Assembly: GCA_003482885.1 (NCBI GenBank)
Contig: DMXN01000032.1
Span: forward strand, 13,129-77,128
Source: Candidatus Moraniibacteriota bacterium
Lineage (GTDB): Bacteria > Patescibacteriota > Minisyncoccia > Moranbacterales > UBA2206
Reading direction: 5' to 3'
DNA: 64,000 nucleotides
This document shows, one piece after another, positions 31,944-63,013 of the stretch. Position 1 is the stretch's first letter. Every line of letters begins with the position of its first letter. A model generated the notes under the pieces. That model made no database searches, had not been told where the DNA came from, and saw nothing but the letters and a program-made list of their open reading frames with translations. Position numbers and translations under genes: made by a program.

Positions 31944-31956
31944 ATTGTAAAAAAAC

Positions 31957-40940: not shown

Positions 40941-40952
40941 CTAGGGTGAGGT

Positions 40953-41576
40953 TTATTCCAAAATCCCGTCCAAATTTACATCATAAAGAATTTGTTCTTG
41001 GACAAGGCGATAATTCAAAATTTCGTTTTCTGAAAACCAAATTGGGATTTCTTTTTCCGCTTCTTCCGTGTTTCCCGAAGCATGGATCAGATTGCGAATA
41101 CTTCTTTGATCAAGATCAGCCATTTGATAAGTATCCAAAGTGAAATCGCCCCGAATTGTTCCGATATCGGACGACAATGGCTCCGTTCCTCCGGTAATTT
41201 TTCTGACCAATCCCGCGGCTTGATTGCCTTGCCAGATCATCGCGATAACCGGACCAGAACTTAAATATTTGGCGTTTGATTTCATAATGGCAATGCCGTT
41301 TTCTTTGAACGAGGCAAAGGGCGATTTTAGTCCCTTTTTTTCATAAGCCGCCGCCGCTTTTCTGCCCACCTCTTCCAACCATGCGTCACCGCCTACTTCA
41401 TAATAATGCTTGGTAGCCATTTCTTCTGTCGCAATAAGCATTTTCAATGCCACCATTTTCAAACCGACTCGCTCGTACCTTTTAATAATTTCCCCGATTA
41501 AAGTTCTCTGCACTCCGTCCGGTTTGATAATAACCAGCGTCCTCTCCTTGCTTGGATGATTTTTTTTGTCCGTCAT
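40953..41576 (-). CDS. ndk: Nucleoside diphosphate kinase with an internal insertion and a C-terminal extension
   Basis: ERTLVIIKPDGVQRTLIGEIIKRYERVGLKMVALKM and NLIHASGNTEEAEKEI (catalytic His). About 207 aa against the usual ~140; a ~30-aa insert follows the HYYEV region. Confidence 0.8.
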   Translation of the reverse strand: MTDKKNHPSKERTLVIIKPDGVQRTLIGEIIKRYERVGLKMVALKMLIATEEMATKHYYEVGGDAWLEEVGRKAAAAYEKKGLKSPFASFKENGIAIMKSNAKYLSSGPVIAMIWQGNQAAGLVRKITGGTEPLSSDIGTIRGDFTLDTYQMADLDQRSIRNLIHASGNTEEAEKEIPIWFSENEILNYRLVQEQILYDVNLDGILE

Positions 41577-41687
41577 TGTTTTGATAAAATTAAAAATTAT
41601 TACTTTAATAAAAAACGGCATAAACCGTTTTCAGCCAATTTCAGTTTAGCAAAATGAGGAAAATAAATCAAACCGTTTCGCGGTTCT

Positions 41688-42866: not shown

Positions 42867-42894
42867 AAAATCGATTTAGCAATTATACCAGTAC

Positions 42895-42946
42895 TATATG
42901 ATGGCATCGTATAGTTTGTCAAGAATCTATACGATGCCATCATATA
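42895..42946. repeat. Perfect 20-bp inverted repeat with a 12-nt loop
   Basis: tatatgatggcatcgtatag-tttgtcaagaat-ctatacgatgccatcatata. It has no flanking T-run, so it is not a canonical terminator. Confidence 0.5.
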
Positions 42947-43140
42947 AACAAAAGTAGAAATCTTATATTGGTATCAGCTAATGTTTCCTTTTCTTTTTTC
43001 CGACAGCAATCGGAATTGTTTAAAAAAAAATTTAAAAAATCTTTTTCCGTTTTGGGCGAAGGGCAGAGGGGTTAGGAGTGAATGCCCAAAATCCAAAACA
43101 CAATATTTCTTTTCAAACAAACAGGCAAAAAGGAAGGGGT

Positions 43141-44661: not shown

Positions 44662-44662
44662 G

Positions 44663-45445
44663 TTAAATGTTTGGCGTTAATCTTTTTTTAGCAATCCCTA
44701 CATATTGCTTTTCTTTTTCAATCCCAATCCAATCCCGACCAAATTTTTTAGCTACAAAAGCTGTAGTTCCGCTTCCTAAGAATGGATCCAAAATAATGTC
44801 GCCCTTGCTGGAGCTTGCTAAAATTATTCTTTTTAGCATTTCTTCTGGTTTTTGAGTTGGATGCAACGCCTTACCGTCTTTGCCTCGTACTCTTTCTTTG
44901 CCTTGAACTAATGGTAATTCCCAAAAGTCACGCATTTGTTTTTCGGTTCCATCTTTTTGTTTTTCAGGATTTATTTCTTTAATTTTTTTATAATTAAAAG
45001 TCCAGCCACTACCTTTGACAGCCCAGATTACAAATTCTGTTGCGTGAGTAAACACCCTCCTTGTCATATTCGGCATGGCGTTCGTTTTATACCAAGTAAT
45101 GATGTTATTTACTTTGAAATCAAGCTGTTTTAGTACAATCATTACTTCTCCAATGTTGTGATAACTGCATGCGATGTAGATTGATCCTGTGTCTTTTAAA
45201 ACTTTGTGGCAAGCTCCGATCCATTTTCTTGTAAACTGTAAATATTCAGGCGCTGTCATTTTGTCCCAATGTTCATTTACCATATACCAATCTCCACCAG
45301 TTTTGCTACCTTGCCATTTTAAACCATTGCCAGATAAATTATATGGAGGATCAGCAAAGACAAGATCAATAGAACTCTTATCAATCTTTGTATTGAGTAT
45401 GCTTATGCAATCGTCGTTGTAGATAATATTTTTTTTCATACTCAT
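44663..45445 (-). CDS. Beta-class DNA methyltransferase (N6-adenine or N4-cytosine)
   Basis: Motif IV DLVFADPPYNLSGNG is N-terminal. Motif I DIILDPFLGSGTTAFVAKKFGRDWIGIE is C-terminal. Confidence 0.8.
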   Translation of the reverse strand: MSMKKNIIYNDDCISILNTKIDKSSIDLVFADPPYNLSGNGLKWQGSKTGGDWYMVNEHWDKMTAPEYLQFTRKWIGACHKVLKDTGSIYIACSYHNIGEVMIVLKQLDFKVNNIITWYKTNAMPNMTRRVFTHATEFVIWAVKGSGWTFNYKKIKEINPEKQKDGTEKQMRDFWELPLVQGKERVRGKDGKALHPTQKPEEMLKRIILASSSKGDIILDPFLGSGTTAFVAKKFGRDWIGIEKEKQYVGIAKKRLTPNI

Positions 45446-45448
45446 AGG

Positions 45449-47266
45449 TTAAAAATTTAGACTTTTTTGCCATGACGAAATGGCATTTGGGATATTCCTA
45501 AGCCAGCCATCTGAATCGCTAAAAGAATTTGATGAATTGATTATTTCATCGTATAGGCGAGCAATTTCGCTATGTTTTAAAAATTTATTCTCTGTTTTTA
45601 TCTGTACGAGTACTTTCAAAAGAGACACGAAATTGTTTATTGATAAAGGAATTATTTTTTGTTTATTACCCTCGTATTCATATTTTATGGCCGTCCAAAA
45701 GGTATTTATAGTATCTCTGTGCATTTGGGGAGCAATAAACAAGCAATATGTAGTTTTGTCACTATGTTTATTTTCAAAATCTCTTAAATGTCTCATCACT
45801 GGTTGCCCCTCGTTATACCACTGATCTCTGCCCGTTAGCATTGTTGCCTCACAAATAGCATTAAAACTTTGATAAAAACACTCAATATCTGGCGTGTTTG
45901 CTGGTGCTGTAAATGTTGGTTCGTTATCATCGCCGACTGGATAGTTTGGCTGTATTTTTAATGCATCGTTCAGGGCATTCAGACCCAATGATGATAACTT
46001 TTCAAGCAGTATTGGTCTGTCTTCAGATTCAAAAATATTTTCAAATTCTTGAATGTAGGATTTAATTTGTTCTGTGTCTTGTGACTTTTGATGATTTTGT
46101 TTGTCTTGTAGCTCTCTTCGATAGTTTCGCAGTTCATTGATAAATTTTTTCAATCTATCTTCATCTAGTTTTTGATAATCCAAAAATACTTTTGGCGTTA
46201 TCCTCGTTTCTCGTTCAAATAACTTTATATCTTCAAGCAATTTTATGGCAATTTCAATAAGCTTTTCTTTAGTTTCCCATGGTAATTTTGGCTCAGAGAT
46301 GTCAGAAATATAGTCTAAGTATTTCTCTTTTGATTCAAATGTCTTTGATTGAGCATTATCAAAATCCAACAAAGCATCAATTTCAACCGATCTTCTCGGC
46401 TCCAGATCAATATAAAAACCACCACCCCGTATATAAATATAGCGAGTTAGGCGGAAGTATCTGATAGCGTTGTCTCCATAGTCTTTGAGATTTTTTAGTA
46501 GCTTTTGAATTTCTGTAGTATTTGGTTTTCCAATAAATTCCCGTGCGAAAGTTTTTTTATATTTGTCTCGGATTGTTTTTTGTTCCTGCTTCGGTTTGTC
46601 TTTAAGGTCTTTTCGTAATGCGATAATTTTTTCAGAATAAATTTCTATATCTTCATAATTAACAAGGGTTGGACAAAATAAAGAAAATTCTTCCTTACTT
46701 ATTCCTTTTTCTTTTTCTCCTGATTTCCTAGATTTTTTATTTACTTCCCGAATAAGATGAAGCACGCCGACAAATGGTTCTATGTTGTATCCATCTTCAA
46801 GTTTATAGTCATCACTATCAGGGTTTGGGATTTGCCACTTGATAAAACTTCTAAAGAATATTTCACCAAGATCAAAATCGTCTTTTAGAAATAGTTTTCC
46901 TAAGCTGGTTATACAGATTTTTTCATCTTTAATGACAGCAAGCCCAAATTTTTTAAGAGGGTTTATTGATTGCCGCCCTCTCATTGAAGGATCTTTATAG
47001 TTTTTAGCATTAAAAATCGTTTCGGCTTGTTCAAAGGTAATTGTTTTTGTTTGATCGTCAATTAAATCAATTTGTTCATAAGATAATCCATTGTAAAATT
47101 GGTTGCTTCCATAGCCGTAAACCCTTTCTTTTATCAAAAGAATTTGATATTTTCTCTGACTTTCTAAATCCCACTTACAATTTTCAAGCTGTTTTAAAAC
47201 AATTAAAAAATCTCTCAATCTTTCAGGATTTCTTAGTGTTGTAGTAATTGACCAAGGTTTTTTCAT
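45449..47266 (-). CDS. AlwI/BstNBI/MlyI-family type IIS restriction (or nicking) endonuclease
   Basis: N-terminal WSITTTLRNPERL…, mid-protein IEPFVGVLHLIREVNKK and C-terminal YCLFIAPQMH…IIPLSINNFVSLLKV parallel the conserved blocks of Nt.BstNBI/AlwI-family enzymes; 605 aa. Confidence 0.65.
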   Translation of the reverse strand: MKKPWSITTTLRNPERLRDFLIVLKQLENCKWDLESQRKYQILLIKERVYGYGSNQFYNGLSYEQIDLIDDQTKTITFEQAETIFNAKNYKDPSMRGRQSINPLKKFGLAVIKDEKICITSLGKLFLKDDFDLGEIFFRSFIKWQIPNPDSDDYKLEDGYNIEPFVGVLHLIREVNKKSRKSGEKEKGISKEEFSLFCPTLVNYEDIEIYSEKIIALRKDLKDKPKQEQKTIRDKYKKTFAREFIGKPNTTEIQKLLKNLKDYGDNAIRYFRLTRYIYIRGGGFYIDLEPRRSVEIDALLDFDNAQSKTFESKEKYLDYISDISEPKLPWETKEKLIEIAIKLLEDIKLFERETRITPKVFLDYQKLDEDRLKKFINELRNYRRELQDKQNHQKSQDTEQIKSYIQEFENIFESEDRPILLEKLSSLGLNALNDALKIQPNYPVGDDNEPTFTAPANTPDIECFYQSFNAICEATMLTGRDQWYNEGQPVMRHLRDFENKHSDKTTYCLFIAPQMHRDTINTFWTAIKYEYEGNKQKIIPLSINNFVSLLKVLVQIKTENKFLKHSEIARLYDEIINSSNSFSDSDGWLRNIPNAISSWQKSLNF

Positions 47267-47268
47267 AA

Positions 47269-49077
47269 TTATTTTGTTACATTACAATAAAAAATTCGTT
47301 CGGCGTTTCCATCGCCATTGCTTTTCCCAGCAGTGAACGCCTTATAATCTCTTTCAAAAATTTCTACTTCACCTTTGTTTTTTAATATTCGTAAAATATC
47401 ATTGTCGTTTATTCTAGCATTTGAGCGCCCATCTTTTGAATCCCCAGTATTATTATAAGACAATAATATATGTTTACAATTTACATTTTTAATTAAGTCC
47501 TCAAATGCCTGTGTAGCATTTTTAAGGCAATAGGAGCTTTTTATGTGGGAGCGATCCATTTTTTTTGCTACTCCTTCAACATTAGGTTTTTTCCATTCAG
47601 CTAAATTTTCCAGTAAATGATAGGCATCTGAATATTGACGCGAGTTATAGGGCGGATCTATGTATAAAACATCGCAAACAATTTTTCTAATCAAGATATT
47701 TGCGTCTTCTTTGTAAATATCGTTATTTCCGTTATTTAAGTGGTCAATATCTGGGGCTAAAAGTTTTACTGGCTGTAGCATGTCTAAATCTTTACGAAAA
47801 GCGTCATAATGTCCGACGGTATTTGCAACCTTGTCAACGGCATAAATTAAGGAACAGATGAGAATGTTTTTTTCTTCTTCCGTTTCGGCAATTCTTTCTA
47901 TTTCTTCACGGATTGCCCCAATCTTTCTAGCATTTTCTAGTGAAAAATAAGTATTACCAAAGTATTTTGAAAAATAATTATCTTGATCAGTTTTCAAATT
48001 ATTGAGAATATCAATTTTATCCGCAATGTTCTGAATAGGTGAATTTGTACCAAGAAACGTTTTTAGACAAACATAATTTGTAAAAAGGAAATCATTAGAA
48101 ATAATTTTTATTTCTGGTTTATTAAATCTTTCTCCGACAACACCTGTCCCTGCGAAAATATCACAAAATGATTTTATTCCGTTGCATTTTTCTGCGACAA
48201 TATCTTCAATAAATCCGAGCAGTTTATATTTATTACCTAAGTATCTTCTATTTTGCAATTGGAAGGTATTGTTTTGAGTTTTTGAAAAGTGAAAATAGGG
48301 TTTGTCAATTTTTTGTATGGTCGTTACCTCGTAGGCTAGTTTTTCAATTTCAAGTAAGGCGAAAAGAGTACCCTGTATTCCGTCAGCGACATAATCAAAC
48401 CCCTCTTTTTTCTTTTTTAACTTTTCGTAAAAACTATAATGATTATTTTCAGAAACAATAATGAAATCAATAACGGGAATACCCATTATTTCTCCCGCTT
48501 GTGCAATTTTTTCAACAACTTCAATATCTTTTTCGCTTGGCGAAGAATCACCTGAAGGGTGATTGTGAATTAGAATAACGCTGGCGGCGTTTAATTCCGT
48601 AGCTGGGTAGAAAATTTCTCTTGGGTGTAGTAATGCCTTATCTAATAGTCCGATGCTAACGACTTCCTTTTTGAGTAGGGAATTTCTAGCATTAAGATAC
48701 AAACAGACCAGATGTTCTTTTTTCTTATCCCTTAAATCGTAAGTAAGAGACAGAACATCTTGGGAATTTTTGATAATAATCTCGTTTGATTTTTCATCCG
48801 CATAAAATCTTTTTACCAACGAAATTGCGGAAGTAATTTGTAGTGCTTTAGCTTGACCAATACCCGAAATCTCTAAAAGATCATCAACGGTTATATTCAA
48901 AAAGTTTTTACCGAATTTTTTAATAATACTCTCCGAAAGTTGCCTAACATTTTTACCTTTTATACCACTGCCTAAAAGAATCGCCAAAAGATCACTTTTT
49001 GAAAGTGCGTCAGCCCCTTTTTTTAGAAATTTTTCTCTCGGGCGATCAATTTTTGGTATATCCTTAATTTTTGGCAT
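47269..49077 (-). CDS. Fusion protein: RadC-like JAB/MPN domain (N-terminal) plus Dam-family (alpha-class, D12) N6-adenine DNA methyltransferase (C-terminal)
   Basis: N-terminal MPKIKDIPKIDRPREKFLKKGADALSKSDLLAILLGSGIKGKNV…ILIHNHPSGDSSPSEKDI is the RadC JAMM motif. The C-terminus reads RRYLGNKYKLL…FCDIFAGTGVVG…ISND…VLYIDPPYNS, the Dam motifs. Confidence 0.7.
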   Translation of the reverse strand: MPKIKDIPKIDRPREKFLKKGADALSKSDLLAILLGSGIKGKNVRQLSESIIKKFGKNFLNITVDDLLEISGIGQAKALQITSAISLVKRFYADEKSNEIIIKNSQDVLSLTYDLRDKKKEHLVCLYLNARNSLLKKEVVSIGLLDKALLHPREIFYPATELNAASVILIHNHPSGDSSPSEKDIEVVEKIAQAGEIMGIPVIDFIIVSENNHYSFYEKLKKKKEGFDYVADGIQGTLFALLEIEKLAYEVTTIQKIDKPYFHFSKTQNNTFQLQNRRYLGNKYKLLGFIEDIVAEKCNGIKSFCDIFAGTGVVGERFNKPEIKIISNDFLFTNYVCLKTFLGTNSPIQNIADKIDILNNLKTDQDNYFSKYFGNTYFSLENARKIGAIREEIERIAETEEEKNILICSLIYAVDKVANTVGHYDAFRKDLDMLQPVKLLAPDIDHLNNGNNDIYKEDANILIRKIVCDVLYIDPPYNSRQYSDAYHLLENLAEWKKPNVEGVAKKMDRSHIKSSYCLKNATQAFEDLIKNVNCKHILLSYNNTGDSKDGRSNARINDNDILRILKNKGEVEIFERDYKAFTAGKSNGDGNAERIFYCNVTK

Positions 49078-51318: not shown

Positions 51319-53694
51319 TTACATTTCCCATTTATCCCTCTTTTCTTGATCGTCAACATTATCATCATAAACAGTTTGCTCCTGTTCGGGCAAACCGAAA
51401 ATTTCTCTCGGTTTGGCTCCGTCCGCCGGACCGACGATGCCTTTTTCTTCCAAAATATCCAGCAGTCTTGCGGCTCTGGCATAGCCGACGCGCAAACGGC
51501 GTTGCAAAAAAGAAGCAGAGGCTTTTTTAGATTGCAAAATTTCTTTTTTAGCTGTTTCATATAATTCATCATTTTGCGAATCATCAAATGAATTAAATTT
51601 ATCCAACTCCTGCGCAACCGCAGCAGGATTATTTAAAGCGGATTCTTGCATATCTTCTTCATCAATAATATTTTGCGGATTTTCTTCTTTGATAAATTTA
51701 ACAATTTCTTTCGCTTCTTTTTCCGTCGCAAAAACGCCCTGAACTCTTTGTGGTTTAGACGAACTGGCGGAAAGATAAAGCATGTCGCCATTGCCCAATA
51801 ATTTTTCCGCGCCCGCCATATCTAAAATCGTGCGTGAATCGATTTGCGTTGCCACTTGGAAAGCAATTCTGGTGGTGATATTGGCTTTAATTAAGCCAGT
51901 AATTACTTCCACTGACGGTCGTTGCGTAGAAATAATCAAATGAATTCCCACCGCGCGCGCCATCTGCGCGATTCGCACGATTGCTCCTTCCACTTCCCTA
52001 CCATGACTGCCCATCAAATCTGCCAACTCATCAACAATAATTATAATATACGGAACAGTTTTTAAATCTTCCTCGCTCACTTCGCCAGTTTCCGCATCAA
52101 CTAATTTTCTTTTCTCGCCATTTTTTAATTTTTCTTTATAAGAAATAATATCGCGCACTCCGATTTCTTGAAATAATTTATACCGTTTTTCCATTTCCGA
52201 CACCGCCCATTTCAAAGTGTTAATAACTTTAGCATTTTCCACAATCACATCCGTAAGCAAATGAGGAATTCCGTTATACAAAGACAACTCTACTCTTTTC
52301 GGATCAATCATAATAAATTTCAAATCCTCCGGGGAGTTTTGGTATAGCAACATCGCGATAATAGAATTGATGCAAACAGATTTTCCCGTTCCTGTCGCTC
52401 CGGCAATCATCAGATGCGGCATCTTATCAAGACTACCGAAAATATAATTGCCGCTCACATTCTCGCCCAGCGCCAGCGATAAGTTAGATTTTCTGTTTTT
52501 AAATTCTCGACTTTCCAAAATCGTCCGCAAACGCACGAAAGAAGAACTTCTATTTGGAACTTCGATTCCAAATAGCGATTTTCCCGGAATCGGCGCTTCA
52601 ATGCGAATCGGGTTGGCCAACGCCAAAGATAAATCATTTTGCAGCGCCAATATTTTGGCGATTTTCACTCCAACCGCCGGACGAAAACTGTATTGCGTAA
52701 CGGACGGTCCGACTTTAATCTCTCCCCGTTCCACTAAAATACCGAAATTATCCAGTGTTTTTTTGATTATTTCCGCGTTCATTTCCGTATCTCCGCTTTT
52801 CGCTATTCCCGACGCTTTTTCCAAAATATCCACCGGAGGAAATTTCCATTTTTCTCCGCACCGTTTTTTAGCTGACAAAGGAATTTTGTTTCCGATTTTT
52901 TTTTGGGAAAAAACGCCGCCGATTTCCATCTCTTCCAAATCGGAATCCACAAATTGATCCCGCCCTTCCACGAATTTTATTTTTCCGATATTCTCTCCAA
53001 TAGCCTCATCCTCTAACTTTTTCCCTGCTTGATTTTTATTATCATCCTCAATATTATCAATCGCTTCAGCAGAAATATTTTCTTGTTTGTCTTTTTGTTC
53101 TAAATTTATTTCTATTGCTTTTTCTTCGTCTTGTTTCTTTTCTTTTTTAAACTTCCTTAAAAAATTAACAATAGAAAATTCGAAAGCCACTATTATTCCT
53201 AGCAAAAACAAAGCCAAGATCACCACCAAGCTTCCGGCGTTACCTAAATATTTGGCTAAAAAATACGCCGCGGCATAGCCGACATATCCGCCGCCTTTTC
53301 CTTGCGCCGCCATTTCGCGCATTTCGGAAGCTTTGAAAAACCAATGAAAAAATCCCGTCATACTGACAAAAATAACCGCCAAGCCAACCAACTTTGTCAC
53401 ATAAAAAAGCGTTTCCTTTTTGAAAAGCAAAACGGCGCCGGCGATAATTAAAAATAACGGCAGAATAAATTTCGCCCAACCGACTGCCTGTGCGCTTAAA
53501 TTATTCAAAGATTTTCCCGCCATCCCGGAATAACCGAAAAAACCGAAACCGGTTAAAATCGCCAGCGTGAATAAAACCACTCCGGCAATATTTCTTTTTA
53601 CATCGGAAGAAAGATTGAAGTTAAATTTATTCTCTTTTTCGCCTGCGATATTATTTTCTTTTTTTTCTTTTGATAAGGTTTTTTTTCGTCCCAT
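51319..53694 (-). CDS. ftsK: DNA translocase FtsK/SpoIIIE
   Basis: N-terminal TM segments, Walker A in HLMIAGATGTGKSVCINSII, and a gamma-domain wHTH (SASFLQRRLRVGYARAARLLDILEEKGIVG). Confidence 0.85.
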   Translation of the reverse strand: MGRKKTLSKEKKENNIAGEKENKFNFNLSSDVKRNIAGVVLFTLAILTGFGFFGYSGMAGKSLNNLSAQAVGWAKFILPLFLIIAGAVLLFKKETLFYVTKLVGLAVIFVSMTGFFHWFFKASEMREMAAQGKGGGYVGYAAAYFLAKYLGNAGSLVVILALFLLGIIVAFEFSIVNFLRKFKKEKKQDEEKAIEINLEQKDKQENISAEAIDNIEDDNKNQAGKKLEDEAIGENIGKIKFVEGRDQFVDSDLEEMEIGGVFSQKKIGNKIPLSAKKRCGEKWKFPPVDILEKASGIAKSGDTEMNAEIIKKTLDNFGILVERGEIKVGPSVTQYSFRPAVGVKIAKILALQNDLSLALANPIRIEAPIPGKSLFGIEVPNRSSSFVRLRTILESREFKNRKSNLSLALGENVSGNYIFGSLDKMPHLMIAGATGTGKSVCINSIIAMLLYQNSPEDLKFIMIDPKRVELSLYNGIPHLLTDVIVENAKVINTLKWAVSEMEKRYKLFQEIGVRDIISYKEKLKNGEKRKLVDAETGEVSEEDLKTVPYIIIIVDELADLMGSHGREVEGAIVRIAQMARAVGIHLIISTQRPSVEVITGLIKANITTRIAFQVATQIDSRTILDMAGAEKLLGNGDMLYLSASSSKPQRVQGVFATEKEAKEIVKFIKEENPQNIIDEEDMQESALNNPAAVAQELDKFNSFDDSQNDELYETAKKEILQSKKASASFLQRRLRVGYARAARLLDILEEKGIVGPADGAKPREIFGLPEQEQTVYDDNVDDQEKRDKWEM

Positions 53695-54057: not shown

Positions 54058-54771
54058 TCAAGAAAAATCGCCCGAACTTTTTTTCAATCCTTCGCGATAA
54101 AGTTTCAGTTGAAATATCAAATCTTTTTTCAAGTTATTTTTCACCCAATCTTTTTGTTTGGCATCCAGCAATTCTCCCAAACCTTGCAAGATATATTTGT
54201 TGTCAAATTTTTCCAAAATCTCTATAGATTTTTCGATATAATCAAGAATATTTTTTTTTGTTTTTTTAACAATCGTTTCTTTATTAATATCCCAATGTTT
54301 TGAGAAAAAGCAATGAACATCAAAAAAATCACGCGAGGCTGTTTTTTTTCTGTCCGCCAGCGCCGCCAATTTGCAAGCAAACATATCGCCTGGTTCCATA
54401 ACTTTCATTGAAATGCCGAGATAATCTTTTACTAAAAACTTTCCGGCGCTTCCTCTTCTCGAAATTTCTATTTTAATATTTCTTTCATTTTTTCCGTACG
54501 AAAGCAGAAAAAAAATAGTATAACGCTTTATATGTTTTTCCATGATTTCCCCATGCTTTGAAAGAATTTTTTCCAACTCCACAAAAACTACTTTTTCTTT
54601 TTCCTCGCTTAATAAATCAAAATCCAGATCAACGCTATAGCGAGGTAAATCATAAAAAAGATACGCCGCCGTACCACCCTTAAATCCCAAATAAGGCGCG
54701 ACAGAAAGCGTTTCATAAATATCTTTTAAAATTTCAACCATTGCGGTTTTGTGCAATTCCCAATTAAGCAT
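54058..54771 (-). CDS. AbiEii-family nucleotidyltransferase toxin, pair #4
   Basis: LGFKGGTAAYLFYDLPRYSVDLDFD. Confidence 0.75.
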   Translation of the reverse strand: MLNWELHKTAMVEILKDIYETLSVAPYLGFKGGTAAYLFYDLPRYSVDLDFDLLSEEKEKVVFVELEKILSKHGEIMEKHIKRYTIFFLLSYGKNERNIKIEISRRGSAGKFLVKDYLGISMKVMEPGDMFACKLAALADRKKTASRDFFDVHCFFSKHWDINKETIVKKTKKNILDYIEKSIEILEKFDNKYILQGLGELLDAKQKDWVKNNLKKDLIFQLKLYREGLKKSSGDFS

Positions 54772-55552: not shown

Positions 55553-56227
55553 ATGGCAGGATTGATAGAAATATTAGATAGAGTTGCGACATTTTTTTTA
55601 GTTGCAGAAAAAATTCCCATCTTAGGGAAAATTCTGAAAACCACCACTGAAAAAGGTGGGGAAGTAATCGGGAAAAAAATGGAATCGGTTATCGGCAGTT
55701 TTTTAGATGCCGAGGCTGCAAAAAAAACTTTTGACGATGAAATTTCATTTGAAAAAGTAGTTGCAACGGGAACGCTAGCCTCTGCTGAAAGGCAGGTCTT
55801 GATGAGCTATGTCGGTCGCCTTCGAGGTACAACTCCTGATTTAGCTAGTGAGCTCACTCGATGGGTTCACAATACCTTGGTGGCTAATCGTCAACAAGTG
55901 AAACTGTCGACGGGTCAAAAAGAAAACCGTGAAGAAAGAACTTCTGTCGATGATTCCGAAGGAATTCAAATCGCAGAAAACTTACTTCTCGATATTATCA
56001 AAGCAACGGATGATTCTGCGAGAGAAGAAATTCTCAAGCAAAGAGACATCCGTATTAGAGAAAAAAAGACTCCGAAAGGAGTTGAGACAGCAAAAAAAGT
56101 TGGGTCGGCGGTCGCTTCTCAACAAAAAGCAAATTTTGACGACCACAAAAAAACTGCCACAAGCTTTGAAGCTGCCGGCAAAAAATACCTCGAAGAAGTA
56201 CGAGCCAAAAGGAGGGCGCAAAAATGA
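55553..56227 (+). CDS. Hypothetical soluble protein, first gene of the GC-rich island (ATG at 55553 preferred over the track start)
   Basis: AGGAGG lies 7 nt upstream of ATG(55553) MAGLIEILDRVATFF. About 48-50% GC, and the C-terminal half is Lys/Glu-rich. No recognisable motif. Confidence 0.5.
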   Translation: MAGLIEILDRVATFFLVAEKIPILGKILKTTTEKGGEVIGKKMESVIGSFLDAEAAKKTFDDEISFEKVVATGTLASAERQVLMSYVGRLRGTTPDLASELTRWVHNTLVANRQQVKLSTGQKENREERTSVDDSEGIQIAENLLLDIIKATDDSAREEILKQRDIRIREKKTPKGVETAKKVGSAVASQQKANFDDHKKTATSFEAAGKKYLEEVRAKRRAQK

Positions 56228-57285
56228 CAATTTTCATAATATTACCCCTAATAATACTTACTCTGGCGTGGATATTTAACGCCCCAGCTAGGCAGTACAT
56301 GAACGGCGGATTGGCTTATTGCTGGGGATGGTTTTTAGCTCATATCCCCACCGTCGGCGGAGTGTTGGCGGTGGTCGGCGTTGTTGTCGCGTTACCAATC
56401 ATTCTCGGCGCCGGTTGGATCGGCTTTTGGGCAGCCATCGGCAGCTGGGCGCTTGCGCCTACTGCCGGTATGACCATCGGAATCCTTTCGTTGGTTGGCA
56501 TTTTTGCCTTCCGGAAAACGATCGGATTCTTCCTAACGATAGCGTTCATCGCTATCGTAATCGGCTTTTGTTTCCCGCTTCTTAAAGAAGCAATAAACCG
56601 ATACAGCCAGTCCGGTCAGGATGAGCTGGCTAATGTCCTCGATAGTCAATCCGTCCAGATGCAATCGCAAGGCGTAATGCCAGCGGTTGTCATCGAAGAT
56701 GCCGTGCTGTATAACAGAGACGGCAAAGTCATAAATGATTCTGTCAAGAAAGGCGTGGAGTTGCGAACCATTAGCCTGAAAAAATACTCGCTCGGAAAAA
56801 ACCCCGAGACCTTCATCAATGTAATGCTCTCCAACGCAAAGGGTGAGTATTTTGATGGGGAATGCGGGTTAATCCCAGTCAGGAAATTGAAACTGGGAAC
56901 AACCGCGGCAGAAGAGTCCCGCAAAGTCGAAGAGGCTAAGCGGGCGAAAATCGAGAATACCGACTCCGACGCCGATAAGATTTCTCGACGGGAGTTGGAA
57001 AAGGAAACTGCCGCGCGGACAGCGGTGGCAACAACCGGTTGCCAGCCCGACCAGGATAAGGGCGTGTATTGCGCCCATATCCAGCCGGGTGGGTTTGACA
57101 CTCTCCAGCTTCCCGCTGGGGAGTATGCACTTGTGCCGGCAACGGCACAGGTTCGCTGGGATAAAAACCAGTATAAAGCCAGCGGCGGAACATTGTCGCT
57201 GGCTGTTCCTAGATTGGTTTTTTTCTCGTTTCCCGACAATGTAATGTCGGGAGATATCACAATCACAAAAAAACCTCCTTCCTGA
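56224..57285 (+). CDS. Hypothetical polytopic membrane protein (4-5 N-terminal TM segments plus a ~200-aa soluble C-terminal domain), GC-rich island
   Basis: ATGA overlap with the upstream gene, very hydrophobic N-terminal 130 aa, and about 52% GC. Confidence 0.55.
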   Translation: MTIFIILPLIILTLAWIFNAPARQYMNGGLAYCWGWFLAHIPTVGGVLAVVGVVVALPIILGAGWIGFWAAIGSWALAPTAGMTIGILSLVGIFAFRKTIGFFLTIAFIAIVIGFCFPLLKEAINRYSQSGQDELANVLDSQSVQMQSQGVMPAVVIEDAVLYNRDGKVINDSVKKGVELRTISLKKYSLGKNPETFINVMLSNAKGEYFDGECGLIPVRKLKLGTTAAEESRKVEEAKRAKIENTDSDADKISRRELEKETAARTAVATTGCQPDQDKGVYCAHIQPGGFDTLQLPAGEYALVPATAQVRWDKNQYKASGGTLSLAVPRLVFFSFPDNVMSGDITITKKPPS

Positions 57286-57366: not shown

Positions 57367-58497
57367 TTACAAAACAAAATTAAAATAATTATCTTTTGCA
57401 ATATTCATAAATTCCGAACCCAAATAATTTTTCAAAAATTCTTTCGGCAACTTAGCCTTTCCATTCCACTTAAATTCAAACGCGCTTAATTTTCCGCCTT
57501 CTTCTTCGATATAGTCAATTTCTTTTTGATCATAAGTGCGCCAAAAATATTTATTGCAACCTCTTTGCTTATGAGAGTTGGCTTTCAATCTTTCAATGAT
57601 CATTAAATTTTCCCAAAGTGCTCCGACATCATTGCGCAAAGATAGATTATTGAAATTTTGAATCAAACTATTTCGCACTCCCAAATCATAGAAATATATT
57701 TTCATCGATTTGGAAATTTCCTTGCGCAAATTACGGCTGAATGCTCTTAGAACAAAAATTATAAATGATTGTTCCAAAATATCAATATACTTTTGCACTG
57801 TTATGCGACTGACGCCAAGATTTTGCGCCAGCTCATTGTAAGAAACCTCGCTTCCCATTTGCAATGCCAAAAGTTTCAACAAATTTTCAATGATTCCGGA
57901 TTTTTTAACTCCTTCAAAGGCTAAGATATCTTTGTATAAATAATTTGAAACAATTTCATTTAATCTTTCTTTGGCAATTTCCTCGCTTTCTGCCAAAAAA
58001 ACTTCCGGATACACTCCAAAGCGCATAATATTTTCAAGTTTGGCATCAATTTCAACACGACTAAACTTCCGATCAAGCTCGGCAAGAGAAAAGGGATACA
58101 GCATAAAACGAATAGCTCTTCCGGTCATCGGTTCGCTGATTTTATTTGCCAATTCAAAACTGGAAGATCCGGTGGCAATTATTTGAATTTCCGGACAATG
58201 ATCAACTAGAATTTTCAAAATAACTCCGGCATTGGGAAGTTTTTGCATTTCGTCCAGAACTGCAATTTTATATTTCCCCAAAAACATCCGCAGTTTTTCC
58301 ACTTCAGGAATTTCAATATTCCGCCTGACCGAAAGCAACTCGCAATCAAAATAATAGGCATCTTCTCCATATTGACTGATTATATTTTTCGCCAATGTTG
58401 TCTTGCCAGTTTGCCTAGCTCCATAAATAATGATTGCTTTTTTTTTGAAAAGCCGGCTTTCAATCTGTTTTTGCGCTATTCTTGGTATATTTTGCAT
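57367..58497 (-). CDS. AAA+ ATPase (AAA_14 plus DUF4143 type), second paralogue
   Basis: KAIIIYGARQTGKTTLAKNII is the Walker A motif; 376 aa. Confidence 0.75.
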   Translation of the reverse strand: MQNIPRIAQKQIESRLFKKKAIIIYGARQTGKTTLAKNIISQYGEDAYYFDCELLSVRRNIEIPEVEKLRMFLGKYKIAVLDEMQKLPNAGVILKILVDHCPEIQIIATGSSSFELANKISEPMTGRAIRFMLYPFSLAELDRKFSRVEIDAKLENIMRFGVYPEVFLAESEEIAKERLNEIVSNYLYKDILAFEGVKKSGIIENLLKLLALQMGSEVSYNELAQNLGVSRITVQKYIDILEQSFIIFVLRAFSRNLRKEISKSMKIYFYDLGVRNSLIQNFNNLSLRNDVGALWENLMIIERLKANSHKQRGCNKYFWRTYDQKEIDYIEEEGGKLSAFEFKWNGKAKLPKEFLKNYLGSEFMNIAKDNYFNFVL

Positions 58498-58608: not shown

Positions 58609-59106
58609 TTACAAACTCGCGCTTAAGATTGCGTCGATTGTTTCAATGACAATATACCCGGAAAGCGCCACTGCCAATCCGATAATGGAAGCCGTCATAG
58701 TTTTTTTGGCGGTTTCCATCATTTTTTCATCCGCCGCCGCCAAATAATACTGAACGCCGGCAATCACAAGGCCGATCACCGCCAAAATTCCAATTAAACT
58801 CAAGAGCCAATCGGCGACATTTTCAATAATGCCTTTCACTAAACCGGCATTAGTCGGTAAACCGGCCAACTCGTCCGGAACAATTTCGCTCTCGCTGCCG
58901 GCTTTCTCACAGCAATTATTGTTTGCAAGATCACAAGCAACAGCAGTCTTCAGAATGTCACTATTGGGACAATCGAGCGATGGAATGCCAGGGTATGGAT
59001 AGCAATATCCGCCGGAATCCGTACAGGCATCCGCTTGCGCGTTATTAACCAAGCAAAAACTGAAAATGAAAAATAAAGTTAAAATTAAAAATATTTTTTT
59101 TGACAT
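58609..59106 (-). CDS. VirB2/TrbC-like pilin-family protein with a Cys-rich N-terminal domain (paralogue 1 of 4)
   Basis: Signal peptide, then 8 Cys (DACTDSGGYCYPYPGIPSLDCPNSD…CDLANNNCCEKAG), then a conserved two-helix module (VADWLLSLIGILAVIGLVIAGVQYYLAAADEKMMETAKKTMTASIIGLAVALSGY). Confidence 0.55.
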   Translation of the reverse strand: MSKKIFLILTLFFIFSFCLVNNAQADACTDSGGYCYPYPGIPSLDCPNSDILKTAVACDLANNNCCEKAGSESEIVPDELAGLPTNAGLVKGIIENVADWLLSLIGILAVIGLVIAGVQYYLAAADEKMMETAKKTMTASIIGLAVALSGYIVIETIDAILSASL

Positions 59107-59111
59107 AAAGT

Positions 59112-59480
59112 TTAAAATAAATAATCAGCGTTTAACATATAATCCACCGCGGTAACAACCACCACTCCGGAAAGCGCCACAATTACTCCATAAATCGAAG
59201 CCATCATTGCGCTTTTAGCAGTTTTCATTTTAGCGTCATCCCCCGCCGAAGTTAAATACATCAAACCGGAAATTATAAAACCAATCACGCCGGCGATTCC
59301 CACTAGCGTTAAAAGCCAATCAAGAATATTGGAAATAATACCATAGATGCCCTCAATAGGATCGGGCAGACCAAAACCCGACACATCAAGCAGATCCCAA
59401 CCGCCAATAGCGGTTTTTTTAAACCCGAACAAAAACACCAAGCTCAAAACCGCGATGGATAAAAAATTTTTTGATTTCAT
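59112..59480 (-). CDS. VirB2/TrbC-like pilin-family protein (paralogue 2)
   Basis: Signal peptide plus the module ILDWLLTLVGIAGVIGFIISGLMYLTSAGDDAKMKTAKSAMMASIYGVIVALSGVVVV. Confidence 0.55.
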   Translation of the reverse strand: MKSKNFLSIAVLSLVFLFGFKKTAIGGWDLLDVSGFGLPDPIEGIYGIISNILDWLLTLVGIAGVIGFIISGLMYLTSAGDDAKMKTAKSAMMASIYGVIVALSGVVVVTAVDYMLNADYLF

Positions 59481-59494
59481 TTTTCTTGTTTTTC

Positions 59495-59661
59495 TTTGTC
59501 ATTCCCGCGAAGGCGGGGATCTAGGTTCCACTAAACTATTTACTACAACAAATCAAATTATATTTTTTATTTTATACTACTTTGCACTAATTGTATTAAT
59601 TTGTTTTTTCTTTATATAAAACTTGTGGTGACTGGATCCCCGCCTTCGCGGGGATGACAAT
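59495..59661. mobile_element. MITE-like 167-bp element: GC-rich 27-bp terminal inverted repeats around an AT-rich core
   Basis: The left end is ttgtcattcccgcgaaggcggggatc. The right end is gatccccgccttcgcggggatgacaa, which matches 26 of 27 positions when reverse-complemented. Each end is itself a small GC hairpin (cccgc-gaag-gcggg). Confidence 0.4.
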
Positions 59662-59707
59662 AAGAAATTATAAAATTATTATCTATACTGTATCACAAAA
59701 AACAAAA

Positions 59708-59740
59708 TAAAAATAGTCCGCCATGGCGGACTATTTTTTA
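59708..59740 (-). terminator. Terminator of pilin paralogue 3
   Basis: tagtccgcc-at-ggcggacta is a perfect 9-bp stem with A and T runs on either side. Confidence 0.5.
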
Positions 59741-59766
59741 ACTTTTGCAAATATATATTTTCAAAA

Positions 59767-60123
59767 CTAGAATGTCGCGCCACCCAATAAGCCACTGGCC
59801 GCTCTAAGCGCCACCACGCCGGCAATCGCCACAAGCACTCCGATAATCGAAGCAACCATCGCGCTTTTAGCTTTCTTGATTTTATCTTCATCTCCGGCCG
59901 CCGTCAGATATAAAATTCCGGAAATCGCGAAACCGATTACTCCGGCAATCCCGATCGCGGTCAAAAGCCAGTTCATAATATTAGCGACAATATTCATAAC
60001 GGATTCTTCAGGAAGACCAGTTCCCCCTCCCGCGGTCGGATCAAAAGCTCCGAATACAATCGCCGGCGCTGCTAATGCCGCAACTGAAATCCCATAAGCC
60101 AATCCTCTAATTTTATTTTTCAT
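59767..60123 (-). CDS. VirB2/TrbC-like pilin-family protein (paralogue 3)
   Basis: Signal peptide plus IMNWLLTAIGIAGVIGFAISGILYLTAAGDEDKIKKAKSAMVASIIGVLVAIAGV. Confidence 0.55.
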   Translation of the reverse strand: MKNKIRGLAYGISVAALAAPAIVFGAFDPTAGGGTGLPEESVMNIVANIMNWLLTAIGIAGVIGFAISGILYLTAAGDEDKIKKAKSAMVASIIGVLVAIAGVVALRAASGLLGGATF

Positions 60124-60156
60124 ACAAACACCTCCTTCTATTTTTTATATTTATTT

Positions 60157-60918
60157 TTATCCCGTTATTAATTTCTCCACTTGTTGCAATATTGTGAGTG
60201 AACCCAGCGCGATGATGATTCCGATAATCGACCACTTTGCCATTGTTTTGGCGGTTTCTGTTTGTTTGCCGCCACTGTAATCCGTCATATACATTCCGCC
60301 GGCGATCACTAAACTGATTATAGCAATTATTCCCACAATCGACAAGAGAAAATTCAAAACATTGGTGGCGATTTGCTGAACGGTCAACGCATTTTCAATT
60401 CCGCCACCCGTCAATGTTCCGCCTAAAATTTCTTGCACTTGTTTCAAAAATGTCGGCGCCGCGACAACGATTGACAGGCCGATCACGGAATACAGCCAGC
60501 AATCTTTCGCTCGCTTTATCATTCCCGGATCGCCGGAAGATACCATGTACAAAATTCCTCCGATGACAATAAACACTATCGATAATGTCACCACCAAGCC
60601 GGAAAGCGCTTTGAGCAATGAAGTTAAAACTTCATCGATGGAATTAGAAGTAATCGGATTGGTAAATTCGGTTGTGGTATTGGAACCACCGGACGGCGGA
60701 GCTGCTTGAGGACACTCAGGAAAAGAAGCGCATGTTTGCTCTATTAATGTTCCTGCACCGCAAGTTCCATCTTTATCAATTACATTGCACTTTATTTGTT
60801 CTGTCGCGTCATCCACGCAACACCATTCCCCCGCCGCCCGCGCTTCAATTCCGCCGAATAAGCAACCCGACAAAACAGCCCACAAAGTTAGACTGAAAAT
60901 AAACTTTTTGTTTTGCAT
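60157..60918 (-). CDS. VirB2/TrbC-like pilin-family protein with a Cys-rich N-terminal domain and an internally duplicated two-helix module (paralogue 4)
   Basis: 7 Cys in EWCCVDDATEQIKCNVIDKDGTCGAGTLIEQTCASFPEC. Two copies of the module are present: LLKALSGLVVTLSIVFIVIGGILYMVSSGDPGMIKRAKDCWLYSVIGLSIV and VLNFLLSIVGIIAIISLVIAGGMYMTDYSGGKQTETAKTMAKWSIIGIIIALG. Confidence 0.55.
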   Translation of the reverse strand: MQNKKFIFSLTLWAVLSGCLFGGIEARAAGEWCCVDDATEQIKCNVIDKDGTCGAGTLIEQTCASFPECPQAAPPSGGSNTTTEFTNPITSNSIDEVLTSLLKALSGLVVTLSIVFIVIGGILYMVSSGDPGMIKRAKDCWLYSVIGLSIVVAAPTFLKQVQEILGGTLTGGGIENALTVQQIATNVLNFLLSIVGIIAIISLVIAGGMYMTDYSGGKQTETAKTMAKWSIIGIIIALGSLTILQQVEKLITG

Positions 60919-61052: not shown

Positions 61053-62432
61053 TTATTTCGCTTCCGCTCTTGTTAATCTTTCCCCGGCCGCTTGAAGAGC
61101 GTCCGCCACAGTCGCGGCGCCTTTATTCACTTGATCTATCATTTCGGCAAAAACAAATTCGGTTGCCGCCGCATCGATTTGCTTCCAACTTTTCGCCGTC
61201 AAATTTCCTTTGGCGAATATATTCAAATCAACATCGTTCTTTTGTTTTTCAATTAAATCTTTTCTAGCGGCCGGCTGTTTGGTTATTTCCAAATATTTTC
61301 CCGCCGGATCAAAATTCAAATCAATTGGTTTGTTCACCGCCATCGTACTTGATGCCGGCGCGACAATCGGCATTTCCGCTTTGGTTGTCAGATAGGTTAA
61401 TAATTTCCATGCTTCCGTAATGCGAATATCATTGGATACCGGCGTGGTTTTGTTTTTTGGATCAGCTTCAATTGTTTTATTATTCGCCACTGCGAACGCC
61501 CAATAATTGGCGTAATTAACCGGCGCGCCCGGAAAAACTTGCGGGATTTCCGCCACCGTAAAATTTAATTTTGGCGCTTTGCTTTTGATTACATCCATCT
61601 GCCAAGAATAATTTAACATCATCGCCAACGATCCTTCCGAAAAAGCATCGATGGAATAATGCGTCACAGGATTCCATGAATAACTGGATGATCCGGCTTT
61701 GGCAAATTGTGTATAAAAATCCAAAGCTTTGACAGCATTTCCATCTCGACCGAAATCTATTTGACCTCTTTCATCGCGCATTTGCACGCCATTCTGCAAC
61801 ATTAAAAGATTTAAAATGTCAGTCGAACGATTGATATTATAGGCGGTTCCCAGCGCAGCGCCGGATTGGGTAATTCCTCCTTGATTATTGATTTTAGTCA
61901 GTTTTTCCGCCAAGATCACAAATTCTTCCCAAGTTTTTGGCGGAGCGGTAATGCCGGCGGCGTTAAAAAGATCCTTATTATAATATAGCGCCAGCGAATC
62001 AACGGAAAGTGGAACGGCGTAAATCGCGCCGTCCGCGATAAAATCATTGGCGCAAACATCGGCAAAATCTTTGCGGAATTTTTGCTCGGTTAAAATTTCT
62101 TTCGGCGCGGCTGATATTTTATTGGAAAATTCCGCCAACCATGTATTGTGAATCAAAAAAATATCCGGACCTTTCCCTGAAGCCAACGCGTCAACCAAGT
62201 CTTTTTTGTAAGTTTCAATGCGTTGTTTTTTGTAGATAATATTTCCAACATTAGGATTGATGTCGCGATAGTTTTTGAATATTTCCGCGTACGCGTCGCT
62301 GTCATCCAAAACGCCCCACACTTCCAAGTCCACTCTGTATTTTTCCGCTGTCTGTCTGCACCCGCAACCGGAAACAACCAATAGAATAAAAGCTAAAAAA
62401 GATATTAAGAAAATTTTTGTTTTATTTGGCAT
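61053..62432 (-). CDS. ABC transporter extracellular solute-binding protein (family 1, sugar type), lipoprotein
   Basis: Lipobox region LLVVSGCGC, about 460 aa, with a general SBP_bac_1 pattern (…YNKDLFNAAGI…). Confidence 0.7.
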   Translation of the reverse strand: MPNKTKIFLISFLAFILLVVSGCGCRQTAEKYRVDLEVWGVLDDSDAYAEIFKNYRDINPNVGNIIYKKQRIETYKKDLVDALASGKGPDIFLIHNTWLAEFSNKISAAPKEILTEQKFRKDFADVCANDFIADGAIYAVPLSVDSLALYYNKDLFNAAGITAPPKTWEEFVILAEKLTKINNQGGITQSGAALGTAYNINRSTDILNLLMLQNGVQMRDERGQIDFGRDGNAVKALDFYTQFAKAGSSSYSWNPVTHYSIDAFSEGSLAMMLNYSWQMDVIKSKAPKLNFTVAEIPQVFPGAPVNYANYWAFAVANNKTIEADPKNKTTPVSNDIRITEAWKLLTYLTTKAEMPIVAPASSTMAVNKPIDLNFDPAGKYLEITKQPAARKDLIEKQKNDVDLNIFAKGNLTAKSWKQIDAAATEFVFAEMIDQVNKGAATVADALQAAGERLTRAEAK

Positions 62433-62434
62433 AT

Positions 62435-63013
62435 TTATTTTTCTAAAATTACTCCGTAATGAAAATCACTGATCGCCATTTCTTTTATAATGCTCAAGCC
62501 ACAATTTATCGCCAGCTCGGAAATTTCATCCTTGGAAATACGCAAATTTCTTGCCGGACCAAAAGAAGAATCTTTTTCTCCCCATTCAATAACCAAAATT
62601 TTCCCGCCGGTTTTCAAAACGCGCGCCGCTTCTTTAACTATTATTTCTTTGCTTTTATTTTGAAAAAGCATATTCACCAAAAATACCCAGTCTAAGCTAT
62701 TTTCCTTTAATTTTGATCCGCCGGCCACTTCTAAGTTAGCTCTTTTAATAATAATATTATTAAAGCTCAAAACTTTCGCTTCCGATTCAACTGATTCCAA
62801 TTTATCTTTTAAAATATCCAGAGCGTACACTTGTCCTGTTTGCCCGACTTTTTCCGCCAAAGGAAAAGCGAAATAACCGATGCCGCAACCGAAATCGCCA
62901 ATCGACATTCCCGCCGTGATTTCTAACAAATCAATGGTCGCGCGCGGATCAATAAATTTAATTCCAATATTATTTTCCATTATCTTTATTGTACAATTAT
63001 CTTTATTGTACAA
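62435..63013 (-). CDS. Class I SAM-dependent methyltransferase
   Basis: GMSIGDFGCGIGYFAFPLAEKVGQTGQVYALDI is motif I (GxGxG), and LKTGGKILVIEW is the post-II motif. Confidence 0.7.
   Translation of the reverse strand: MYNKDNCTIKIMENNIGIKFIDPRATIDLLEITAGMSIGDFGCGIGYFAFPLAEKVGQTGQVYALDILKDKLESVESEAKVLSFNNIIIKRANLEVAGGSKLKENSLDWVFLVNMLFQNKSKEIIVKEAARVLKTGGKILVIEWGEKDSSFGPARNLRISKDEISELAINCGLSIIKEMAISDFHYGVILEK

Follow-up and report, generated by a model that had tools for sequence, protein, structure and literature searches.

What kind of system do four tandem genes for small two-helix membrane proteins serve, when the genes around them encode no secretion machine? The question is raised by a stretch of 64,000 nucleotides (nt) from a Candidatus Moraniibacteriota bacterium (assembly GCA_003482885.1, contig DMXN01000032.1, positions 13,129 to 77,128 of the forward strand), referred to here in its full length as the window, in which four minus-strand genes, named A, B, C and D, occupy positions 58609-60918. 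Probably, the products of the array are four VirB2-like pilins, paralogues of one another, that belong to the chromosomal type IV secretion system (T4SS) typical of Patescibacteria, a judgement that covers the explanation as a whole, including the mechanism proposed below. The evidence comes from the proteins themselves, which pass the profile of T4SS pilins, and from sister lineages, in which the orthologue of gene D is found directly upstream of genes for PrgI and the VirB4 ATPase.

The array and its pilin module

The first-pass annotation had described four consecutive minus-strand genes of 165, 122, 118 and 253 amino acids (aa), and open reading frames (ORFs) of exactly these sizes are present. 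The features of the array are listed below; the limits of the two D modules are envelopes of the module hidden Markov model (HMM) made in this analysis.

58609-59106, minus strand: gene A, 165 aa, pilin with a six-cysteine head, starting 5 nt past the stop codon of B; signal peptide at aa 1-25 (A-Q-A), head at aa 26-81, module at aa 82-165
59112-59480, minus strand: gene B, 122 aa, small pilin without a head
59481-59675, no strand assigned: inverted-repeat element of about 195 nt in the spacer between C and B, with imperfect inverted ends of 51 nt
59709-59738, minus strand: terminator-like hairpin after C, 13-bp stem followed by a T run
59767-60123, minus strand: gene C, 118 aa, small pilin without a head
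60157-60918, minus strand: gene D, 253 aa, double-module VirB2-like pilin, first gene of the array
60160-60405, minus strand: D module 2, aa 172-253, helices at 180-212 and 218-252
60412-60663, minus strand: D module 1, aa 86-169, helices at 94-126 and 131-164
60664-60834, minus strand: D head, one six-cysteine unit and a Pro/Ser/Thr linker ending in T-x-F-x-N-P-I
60835-60918, minus strand: D signal peptide, aa 1-28, hydrophobic segment at aa 6-24, predicted cut after A-R-A

The genes are ordered D, C, B, A in the direction of transcription, with gaps of 33 nt between D and C, 286 nt between C and B, and 5 nt between B and A. The array is not strictly contiguous: the 286-nt spacer between C and B holds the terminator-like hairpin, a promoter-like site and the inverted-repeat element. 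Because the hairpin and the promoter-like site, both from consensus scans, stand in this spacer, the array is probably divided into two transcription units, D-C and B-A. The 51-nt ends of the inverted-repeat element are 78% complementary, and each contains a GC-rich hairpin, ATCCCCGCGAAGGCGGGGAT, of which two copies are observed against zero expected by chance. Probably, it is an inserted element resembling a miniature inverted-repeat transposable element, outside the pilin system.

In hydropathy profiles, all of the four proteins begin with a hydrophobic N-terminal leader ending in a small-x-small motif, followed by two long hydrophobic segments with a short charged loop between them in A, B and C, and by four such segments in D. 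The five module copies align over 84-87 columns with pairwise identities of 23-55%, and eight columns are invariant. The signal peptide and the shared two-helix module that the first-pass annotation had assigned to each protein are thus recognizable in the hydropathy segments and in the alignment, as is the duplication that it had noticed within the 253-aa protein, whose modules 1 and 2 are 28% identical to each other (E 2e-9). The module consensus it had given fits A, B and C well; for both copies in D it is loose, in keeping with the small number of invariant columns. The modules of B and C share 55% identity. At the DNA level, a 194-nt repeat family is common to A, B and C at 60-71% identity, and comparison of these repeats showed no sign of recent gene conversion among the three genes; at this level of identity, they are old paralogues.

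Profile searches agree with the VirB2/TrbC pilin assignment that had been proposed, and the similarity goes well beyond what chance would give. All of the four proteins pass the gathering cut-off (26.6 bits) of PF18895, T4SS_pilin: A scores 40.6 bits (E 2.7e-10), B 36.4 (5.4e-9), C 30.0 (5.4e-7), and D, with two matching stretches, 71.1 (8.3e-20). D also passes PF04956, TrbC/VirB2 (40.3 bits; cut-off 27.9), for which A remains below at 18.4 bits and B and C are not listed, and the NCBIfam model NF045849 (50 bits; cut-off 40), for which A, B and C reach 21-29 bits. A profile search of the PDB gave no match. The structure predicted by AlphaFold2 for a single module is one helical hairpin (helices 5-41 and 46-83, pLDDT 79), and for D it is a leader helix, a small beta head (pLDDT about 70) and two helical hairpins (pLDDT about 90), which agrees with the fold expected by the first-pass annotation. 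When the single module was compared with 350,542 PDB chains by Foldseek, the top match was 8dfu, a conjugative pilus subunit, with 81 of 84 columns aligned and a TM-score of 0.61, at an E-value of 1.2 that is not statistically significant; for D, the same structure gave a probability of 0.85 and a TMt of 0.65. A to D are VirB2-family proteins consisting of a signal peptide, whose cleavage is predicted, and one or two PF18895 helical-hairpin modules.

Could the T4SS_pilin match be an artefact of hydrophobicity, in proteins that are in fact small membrane proteins of unrelated origin, for instance holins, bacteriocin immunity proteins or PilA-type pilins? The four are short proteins with two transmembrane segments and biased composition, and weak sub-threshold matches to other membrane families do occur. 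Apart from the families named above, no Pfam family comes close to its own cut-off, all four proteins exceed the cut-off of PF18895, and orthologues adjoin PrgI and VirB4 (see below). Neither holin nor immunity families were matched: among the PHROG families no holin is hit by any array protein, and C matches a single family of unknown function (E 0.007). Endolysin or phage genes were not found close to the array. PilA-type pilins are disfavoured likewise; a class III prepilin leader, with the motif G/(F,M)-T-L-x-E, is missing in A to D, and each module has two hydrophobic helices. Such an unrelated origin is extremely improbable and comes close to being refuted.

The link to PrgI and VirB4 in relatives

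The link to a secretion machine is seen in relatives. Scanning of GTDB species representatives yielded 243 genomes with relatives of D, and the counts of loci given here cover the best 80 of these 243, almost all from Moraniibacteriota or Parcubacteria. The pilin genes lie on one strand in all 80 loci, and at least two are present in 76 of them; the number per locus has a mode of five and a maximum of nine. The double pilin is the first gene in 27 loci, as in the window, and the last in 38. A gene for a solute-binding protein (SBP) of the SBP_bac_1 family is located within 10 kb in 66 loci.

In five loci (L050, L063, L067, L075 and L076), IF2 and DUF4446 genes stand on one side, followed by genes for a methyltransferase, SBP_bac_1, a pilin and a double pilin. 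The double pilin gene is followed on the same strand by a gene of PrgI size (149-171 aa), a gene for 226-252 aa and a gene for a VirB4-like ATPase. In L075 and L076, the two that were checked, the product of the PrgI-size gene passes the cut-off of PF12666. The ATPase of L076 scores 101 bits with PF19044 and 40.5 bits with AAA_10, with AAA_10 and DUF87 passing their cut-offs, and the ATPases of the other four loci are 73-90% identical to it. Furthermore, four independent look-ups anchored on VirB4 gave the order methyltransferase, SBP, pilin, a second and probably double pilin, PrgI, TraC-like protein and VirB4, where TraC-like (PF26593) is the label of the intervening gene; ComM, a lytic transglycosylase with G5 and DPBB domains, KsgA and UvrD are encoded downstream. 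In total, linkage of pilin genes with a T4SS core gene was seen in nine independent loci or locus groups, always in the same syntenic slot. The double pilin of L105, one of the VirB4-anchored loci, is 41% identical to D over both modules (E 2e-37).

D is the orthologue of the pilin that is normally encoded immediately upstream of prgI and virB4 in sister lineages. The array of the window stands in this slot as well, beside IF2 and DUF4446 and after the methyltransferase and SBP_bac_1 genes. Because the orthologous double pilin occupies the same slot upstream of the PrgI, TraC-like and VirB4 genes, the array is tied to a T4SS, and this association, together with the family assignment, can be held with high confidence. 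The proposal of the first-pass annotation that the partner machinery, if any, is located elsewhere is thus a fair reading. In the clade of the window (L001, L005, L007, L008 and L011), the pilin block has grown to four or five genes, compared with two in the VirB4-linked loci, and has been separated from the machine.

The same separation fits another explanation: the pilins may be a relic, parted from a machine that was later lost, and kept with a different function or none. Loci of the window type are uncoupled from prgI and virB4, and the array has four pilins in the window versus five in L005 and L007. Furthermore, in L011, the closest relative, an inserted, unrelated gene of the 23S_rRNA_IVP family separates the double pilin from the pilin that follows it, and A has an orthologue that is split into ORFs of 96 and 130 aa by an apparent frameshift or an assembly error (for the two features together, L011:10779-11153 and 12352-13031). 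What is left does not look like decay, however. In the window, none of the four ORFs is disrupted and the modules are conserved, C and the D body equal the housekeeping neighbour SBP in conservation (84% for C, 74-91% for the D body, 84% for SBP), and the array has expanded relative to the VirB4-linked loci. The machine itself is widespread: VirB4 is recorded for 13 of the 15 Moranbacteria assemblies among the rows of Table S1 examined (PMC12102498), and across the 120 best clusters VirB4 proteins have at least 74% identity, mostly 75-90%. A relic of this kind is therefore very unlikely.

Many representative metagenome-assembled genomes in GTDB (L026, L029, L035, L044, L047, L050, L053 and others) carry the Moranbacteria-type locus with IF2, DUF4446 and SBP_bac_1 while being titled "uncultured Bdellovibrionales"; these labels are probably wrong.

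Subunit roles, heads and concatenated modules

Which of the four paralogues would form the bulk of a structure? Gene C is the most conserved, with identities of 84, 66, 75 and 45% across lineages. Among the array genes, a canonical Shine-Dalgarno sequence, GAAGGAGGTG, precedes C only, here and in four other lineages, and B has none. C is likely the major pilin, judging from these features: it is considered as the bulk subunit because it is headless, is the most conserved, and is the sole array gene with a strong ribosome-binding site.

A and D carry cysteine-rich heads. The first-pass annotation had counted seven to eight cysteines in these N-terminal domains; the numbers are right for the whole proteins (seven in A, eight in D), while one cysteine of each protein belongs to the signal peptide and one of D to module 1. 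When these are discounted, six cysteines remain in each mature head. They are arranged as CC-x9-C-x8-C-x9-C-x5-C in the head unit of D and as C-x6-C-x10-C-x11-C-x6-CC in A, heads of the A type finishing in CC. Across homologues, the D-type unit is described by CC-x5-10-C-x5-10-C-x6-12-C-x3-6-C and is present in zero to about five copies; the head cysteine counts cluster at 0, 6, 12, 14, 18, 22 and 28. The motif T-x-F-x-N-P-[IL] after the D-type heads is conserved, and so is A-x-A ahead of the CC motif. A possible lipobox in D (LSGC, aa 16-19) was considered and is unlikely, because close homologues have kept the A-x-A site but not Cys19.

The heads change much faster than the rest of the proteins. 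Between D and its two closest homologues, the identity of the heads is 56% and 36%, versus 92% and 91% for the bodies, and the median identities across D homologues are 30% and 54% for heads and bodies, respectively. The module of A is closest to that of the last, head-bearing pilin of related arrays (67-76% identity), and instability within the array is concentrated in its head-bearing genes, with one in the window versus two in L005 and L007. Fast-evolving six-cysteine head cassettes and a two-in-one pilin are not mentioned in the open-access literature on Patescibacteria pilins that was searched.

There are more extended chains. Two modules are present in all of the 120 best homologues of D, and a profile of the single module detected 51,523 cluster representatives at E <= 1e-3; those with the best scores have two to eight modules, and one of them has 17. 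For example, P0123, P0125, P0127, P0129 and P0204 consist of one signal peptide and 4, 5, 6, 8 or 17 tandem VirB2-like modules. Because they have a single signal peptide and short linkers, they are true concatemers rather than fused gene calls. The 17-module chain has cysteines in its linkers, and one member of a related cluster comes from Candidatus Andersenbacteria. No description of VirB2-like chains of 4-17 modules was found in open-access text.

Another kind of fusion is found in many of the arrays in which the double pilin is last. Their first gene encodes a pilin module joined in one chain to an SLT lytic transglycosylase, a VirB2-like plus VirB1-like combination, and one version also has a subtilase (Peptidase_S8) domain. 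Examples are located at L008:6818-7960, L026:7482-8549, L031:3874-4944, L041:6091-7281, L053:2380-3462, L061:7890-8975 and L045:5314-7803. Six of the ten fusions tested pass the SLT cut-off, and three of the ten pass both the pilin and the SLT cut-offs. The fusion is a second tie to passage of the cell wall of the T4SS type.

From these observations the following mechanism can be proposed. Sec would insert the pilins so that the N-terminus lies outside and the loops between the helices, which are positively charged, stay inside, and the leader would be cut. The PrgI/VirB4 machine, encoded elsewhere in the genome, would then extract the pilins and build a short tube or pilus through the wall to the host surface. 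C would be the bulk subunit and B a second headless subunit, while A and D would be low-abundance subunits whose disulfide-knotted six-cysteine heads are displayed on the outside in contact with the host; solved structures of conjugative pili show the subunit with its two ends turned outward. D would act as a covalent dimer, two diverged protomers in one chain, and rapid change of the heads together with a variable number of cassettes would tune host specificity. That the product is an extracellular filament with adhesive heads is a tentative part of this explanation, for which the chances are slightly short of even.

Alternatively, the T4SS proteins may never form an extracellular filament and may instead make a membrane-embedded channel or a short stalk, in which the tandem modules would be packed into helical bundles within the membrane and the heads would decorate a fixed pore and face the wall or the host. 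Chains of 2-17 modules behind one signal peptide are common, and a chain of 34 helices is easier to imagine as a membrane assembly than as a polymerizing subunit. Monoderm T4SSs are generally without pili (PMC12102498; PMC12857230), and the filaments isolated so far from the Candidate Phyla Radiation (CPR) are of another kind. On the other hand, the known members of TrbC/VirB2, to which the module is homologous, polymerize (PMC12857230), the best structural neighbour of the module is a conjugative pilus subunit, and the strong ribosome-binding site that precedes one small paralogue points to a structural subunit made in bulk. A channel or stalk of this kind is rather unlikely.

Several points weigh against a T4SS pilin array that builds a pilus to the host. 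Genes for virB4, prgI, traC-like, SLT and coupling proteins were found neither in the window nor in about 20 kb of flanks, which agrees with the statement of the first-pass annotation that the window encodes no VirB4 or VirD4 ATPase; VirB6, VirD4 and relaxase genes are likewise missing from the window, and in tblastn searches of the window and the same flanks with the full protein set of the relatives' T4SS clusters only the pilins were matched. No VirB4 with an accession from this assembly was found, as four VirB4 look-ups and an accession check led elsewhere, and the machinery may be encoded elsewhere in the genome or may have been lost. A disulfide-forming enzyme was not found nearby: the DsbA-like oxidoreductase that had been placed close to the array is absent from the window, where Pfam scans of 50 ORFs revealed no member of the thioredoxin/DsbA family and no thioredoxin-type CxxC motif occurs in window ORFs of at least 70 aa. 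Filaments have been solved from one cultured CPR species and proved to be unrelated, Ig-like "Pam" pili (bioRxiv 10.64898/2026.03.03.709456), and no report of a VirB2-type filament from any Patescibacterium was found in the open-access literature examined. Chains of up to 17 modules fit poorly with classical pilus growth by one subunit at a time. Finally, the roles given to A, B, C and D are deduced from features of their sequences.

The concatemers may themselves point to a different way of building. Concatenated VirB2-like chains of 2-17 protomers might pre-form the wall of a T4SS-derived tube, with six-cysteine knot cassettes, variable in both number and sequence and carried by minor paralogues such as A and D, serving to recognize the host and so setting the host range of these episymbionts. 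This idea is doubtful; if true, neither the architecture of such a pilus, a concatemer tube with a cassette layer, nor its way of achieving specificity would have a precedent among T4SSs.

Genomic surroundings and comparison with known systems

The genes next to the array are the following.

55553-57285, plus strand: convergent two-gene pair, a soluble protein of about 224-241 aa and a 353-aa protein with an N-terminal multi-transmembrane region
57367-58497, minus strand: AAA_14/DUF4143 ATPase gene directly downstream of the array, outside the pilin system
61053-62432, minus strand: SBP_bac_1 solute-binding protein, conserved upstream neighbour
62435-63013, minus strand: S-adenosylmethionine-dependent methyltransferase, conserved upstream neighbour

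The order methyltransferase, SBP, pilins is shared by L001, L005, L007, L008, L011 and every VirB4-linked locus examined; a functional link of these two neighbours to the pilins is hypothetical. The AAA_14/DUF4143 gene is present at the array in the window and in L011 and is missing at this position in L005, L007 and L008. The convergent pair stands beside window-type arrays in five lineages (L005:13222-15119; L007:13179-15087; L008:11168-13304; L011:15556-17342; and the window), where a soluble protein of about 230-320 aa is followed by a multi-transmembrane protein of about 350-380 aa, and the proteins are almost unalignable between lineages. The pair has no Pfam or PHROG match, and only two homologues were obtained in a search of 5.8 billion proteins. 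A role of the two proteins as T4SS partners is hypothetical; neither resembles PrgI, the TraC-like protein or other proteins of the cluster.

The window is an ordinary piece of chromosome, with genes for IF2, RbfA, FtsK, RecA, RuvC, RNase J, a penicillin-binding protein, and TrpS or TyrS, among which numerous genes for defence and toxin-antitoxin systems are interspersed; identical proteins come from groundwater metagenomes and are named Candidatus Moranbacteria. The FtsK gene (51319-53694) was considered as a TcpA-type coupling protein and rejected, as the domains of its product (4TM, alpha, motor and gamma) are those of the housekeeping translocase, and the gene stands beside rodZ-like and recA genes. 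No integrative and conjugative element (ICE), relaxase or integrase was found alongside the array, and tRNA and Rfam scans of the window were empty. Type IV pilus genes (T2SSF/PilC and PilX_N) and a gene for a large lipase-like protein are located 12-20 kb to the left of the window (L009:14726-20714); with PilC and PilX_N encoded on the same contig, the organism has a separate type IV pilus system.

At 15703-17912, 24781-25500, 33191-33967, 39345-47266, 54058-54771 and 57367-58497, genes for defence and toxin-antitoxin systems are unusually dense; they include those for four AbiEii toxins, two AAA_14/DUF4143 ATPases, the restriction enzymes TdeIII and AlwI with methylases, and a DUF6119 protein. 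Adjoining the AlwI system, a single 602-aa protein (47269-49077) has a D12-class (Dam-type) adenine methyltransferase in the same chain as a RadC-like JAB domain, the latter accompanied by its UPF0758 N-terminal domain. Another cluster, at 26250-32604, encodes a MATCAP-like carboxypeptidase, a GT1 glycosyltransferase, a 7TM_transglut membrane protein and three RimK/ATP-grasp ligases, one of them fused to a Zn-protease domain, and may be a system for peptide or amino-acid ligation. Upstream of lexA (3290-7052), two probable surface proteins are encoded, one of 990 aa with an InlB B-repeat-like domain and one with a PKD domain.

How does the array relate to what has been published? In Patescibacteria, 441 arrays of VirB2-like pilins with 2-11 genes have been reported in 383 assemblies by use of PF18895 and PF04956 (Quinonero-Coronel et al. 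2025, PMC12102498), and a pilin gene was found near virB4 in 1135 of 1948 assemblies (PMC12102498). Tandem VirB2-like arrays in this phylum being already published, the kind of system is known. The four genes agree with the published definition of an array, at least two pilin genes in tandem or one non-pilin gene apart in Patescibacteria (PMC12102498), and the module identities of 23-55% agree with the published divergence within arrays (mean 25%, maximum 54%; PMC12102498). Published Patescibacteria T4SSs are mostly without relaxases (PMC12102498), and the conjugation-type role that the first-pass annotation had offered is, by analogy, unlikely for this reason. In Southlakia epibionticum, the T4SS cluster contains a pilin series that is essential (Wang et al. 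2023, PMC10633639; PMC12857230), and a review from 2025 treats the possible pilus of the monoderm Patescibacteria T4SS as still an open question (PMC12857230).

Patescibacteria account for a large part of bacterial diversity, and their cultured members grow attached to host cells. The T4SS and its pilin array are essential in the sole species tested. The locus offers several handles on what the machine builds or moves: C as a protein to seek in filaments, the conserved double pilin that always accompanies PrgI-VirB4, and the cysteine-rich heads as candidates for host specificity; multi-module chains constrain any model of assembly. What is added beyond the published work is the orthology with the PrgI-VirB4 pilin pair, the occurrence of double and higher modules across the family, the hypervariable six-cysteine heads and a candidate major pilin.

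Among known systems, the Mbov_0395 family (NF045849) of Mycoplasma ICEs is similar in being a VirB2-like two-helix protein of a wall-less or monoderm lineage, and D is above its cut-off; A, B and C are below it, however, and the model is an "equivalog" for an ICE protein, whereas no ICE is present here. The best structural neighbour (8dfu, E 1.2), the subunit of the Aeropyrum pernix Ced/conjugation pilus, is likewise a VirB2-like hairpin from an organism without an outer membrane, but it has no detectable sequence similarity and belongs to a DNA-import system in another domain of life.

VirB2 of the Agrobacterium T pilus, TrbC of RP4 and TraA of the F pilus share with the present proteins the leader, two hydrophobic helices, the short charged loop and the predicted hairpin, and D matches PF04956 while A, B and C miss its cut-off. 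Each of these classical pilins has one module, a length of about 60-80 residues and no additional domain, and they function in DNA transfer in diderms with outer-membrane core complexes. In contrast, the present host is a monoderm, and its pilins have N-terminal heads and a tandem fusion. The virB2 arrays of Rickettsiales and Bartonella, for example in Anaplasma phagocytophilum, are similarly products of tandem amplification and diversification, read as host-facing surface variation (PMC12102498); they differ in belonging to the VirB/D4 systems of diderm intracellular pathogens of animals, and the variation lies in the pilin itself rather than in appended cysteine-rich cassettes.

The closest parallels are the SEML1_0006-0019 cluster of Southlakia and the other arrays of Patescibacteria, with which the present one shares PF18895, PF04956, the phylum, and tandem same-strand paralogues of low identity. 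Like these, it is chromosomal and lies beside housekeeping genes, and its orthologous loci are linked to PrgI/VirB4 of the monoderm (MPF-FATA-like) type. No mention of a fused double pilin or of cysteine-rich heads was found in the open-access text of the published array descriptions. The published arrays are most abundant in Microgenomatia and Saccharimonadia, whereas the present one belongs to the class Paceibacteria (Moranbacteria); unlike them, it is detached from virB4 and contains a fused double pilin and two hypervariable members with six-cysteine heads.

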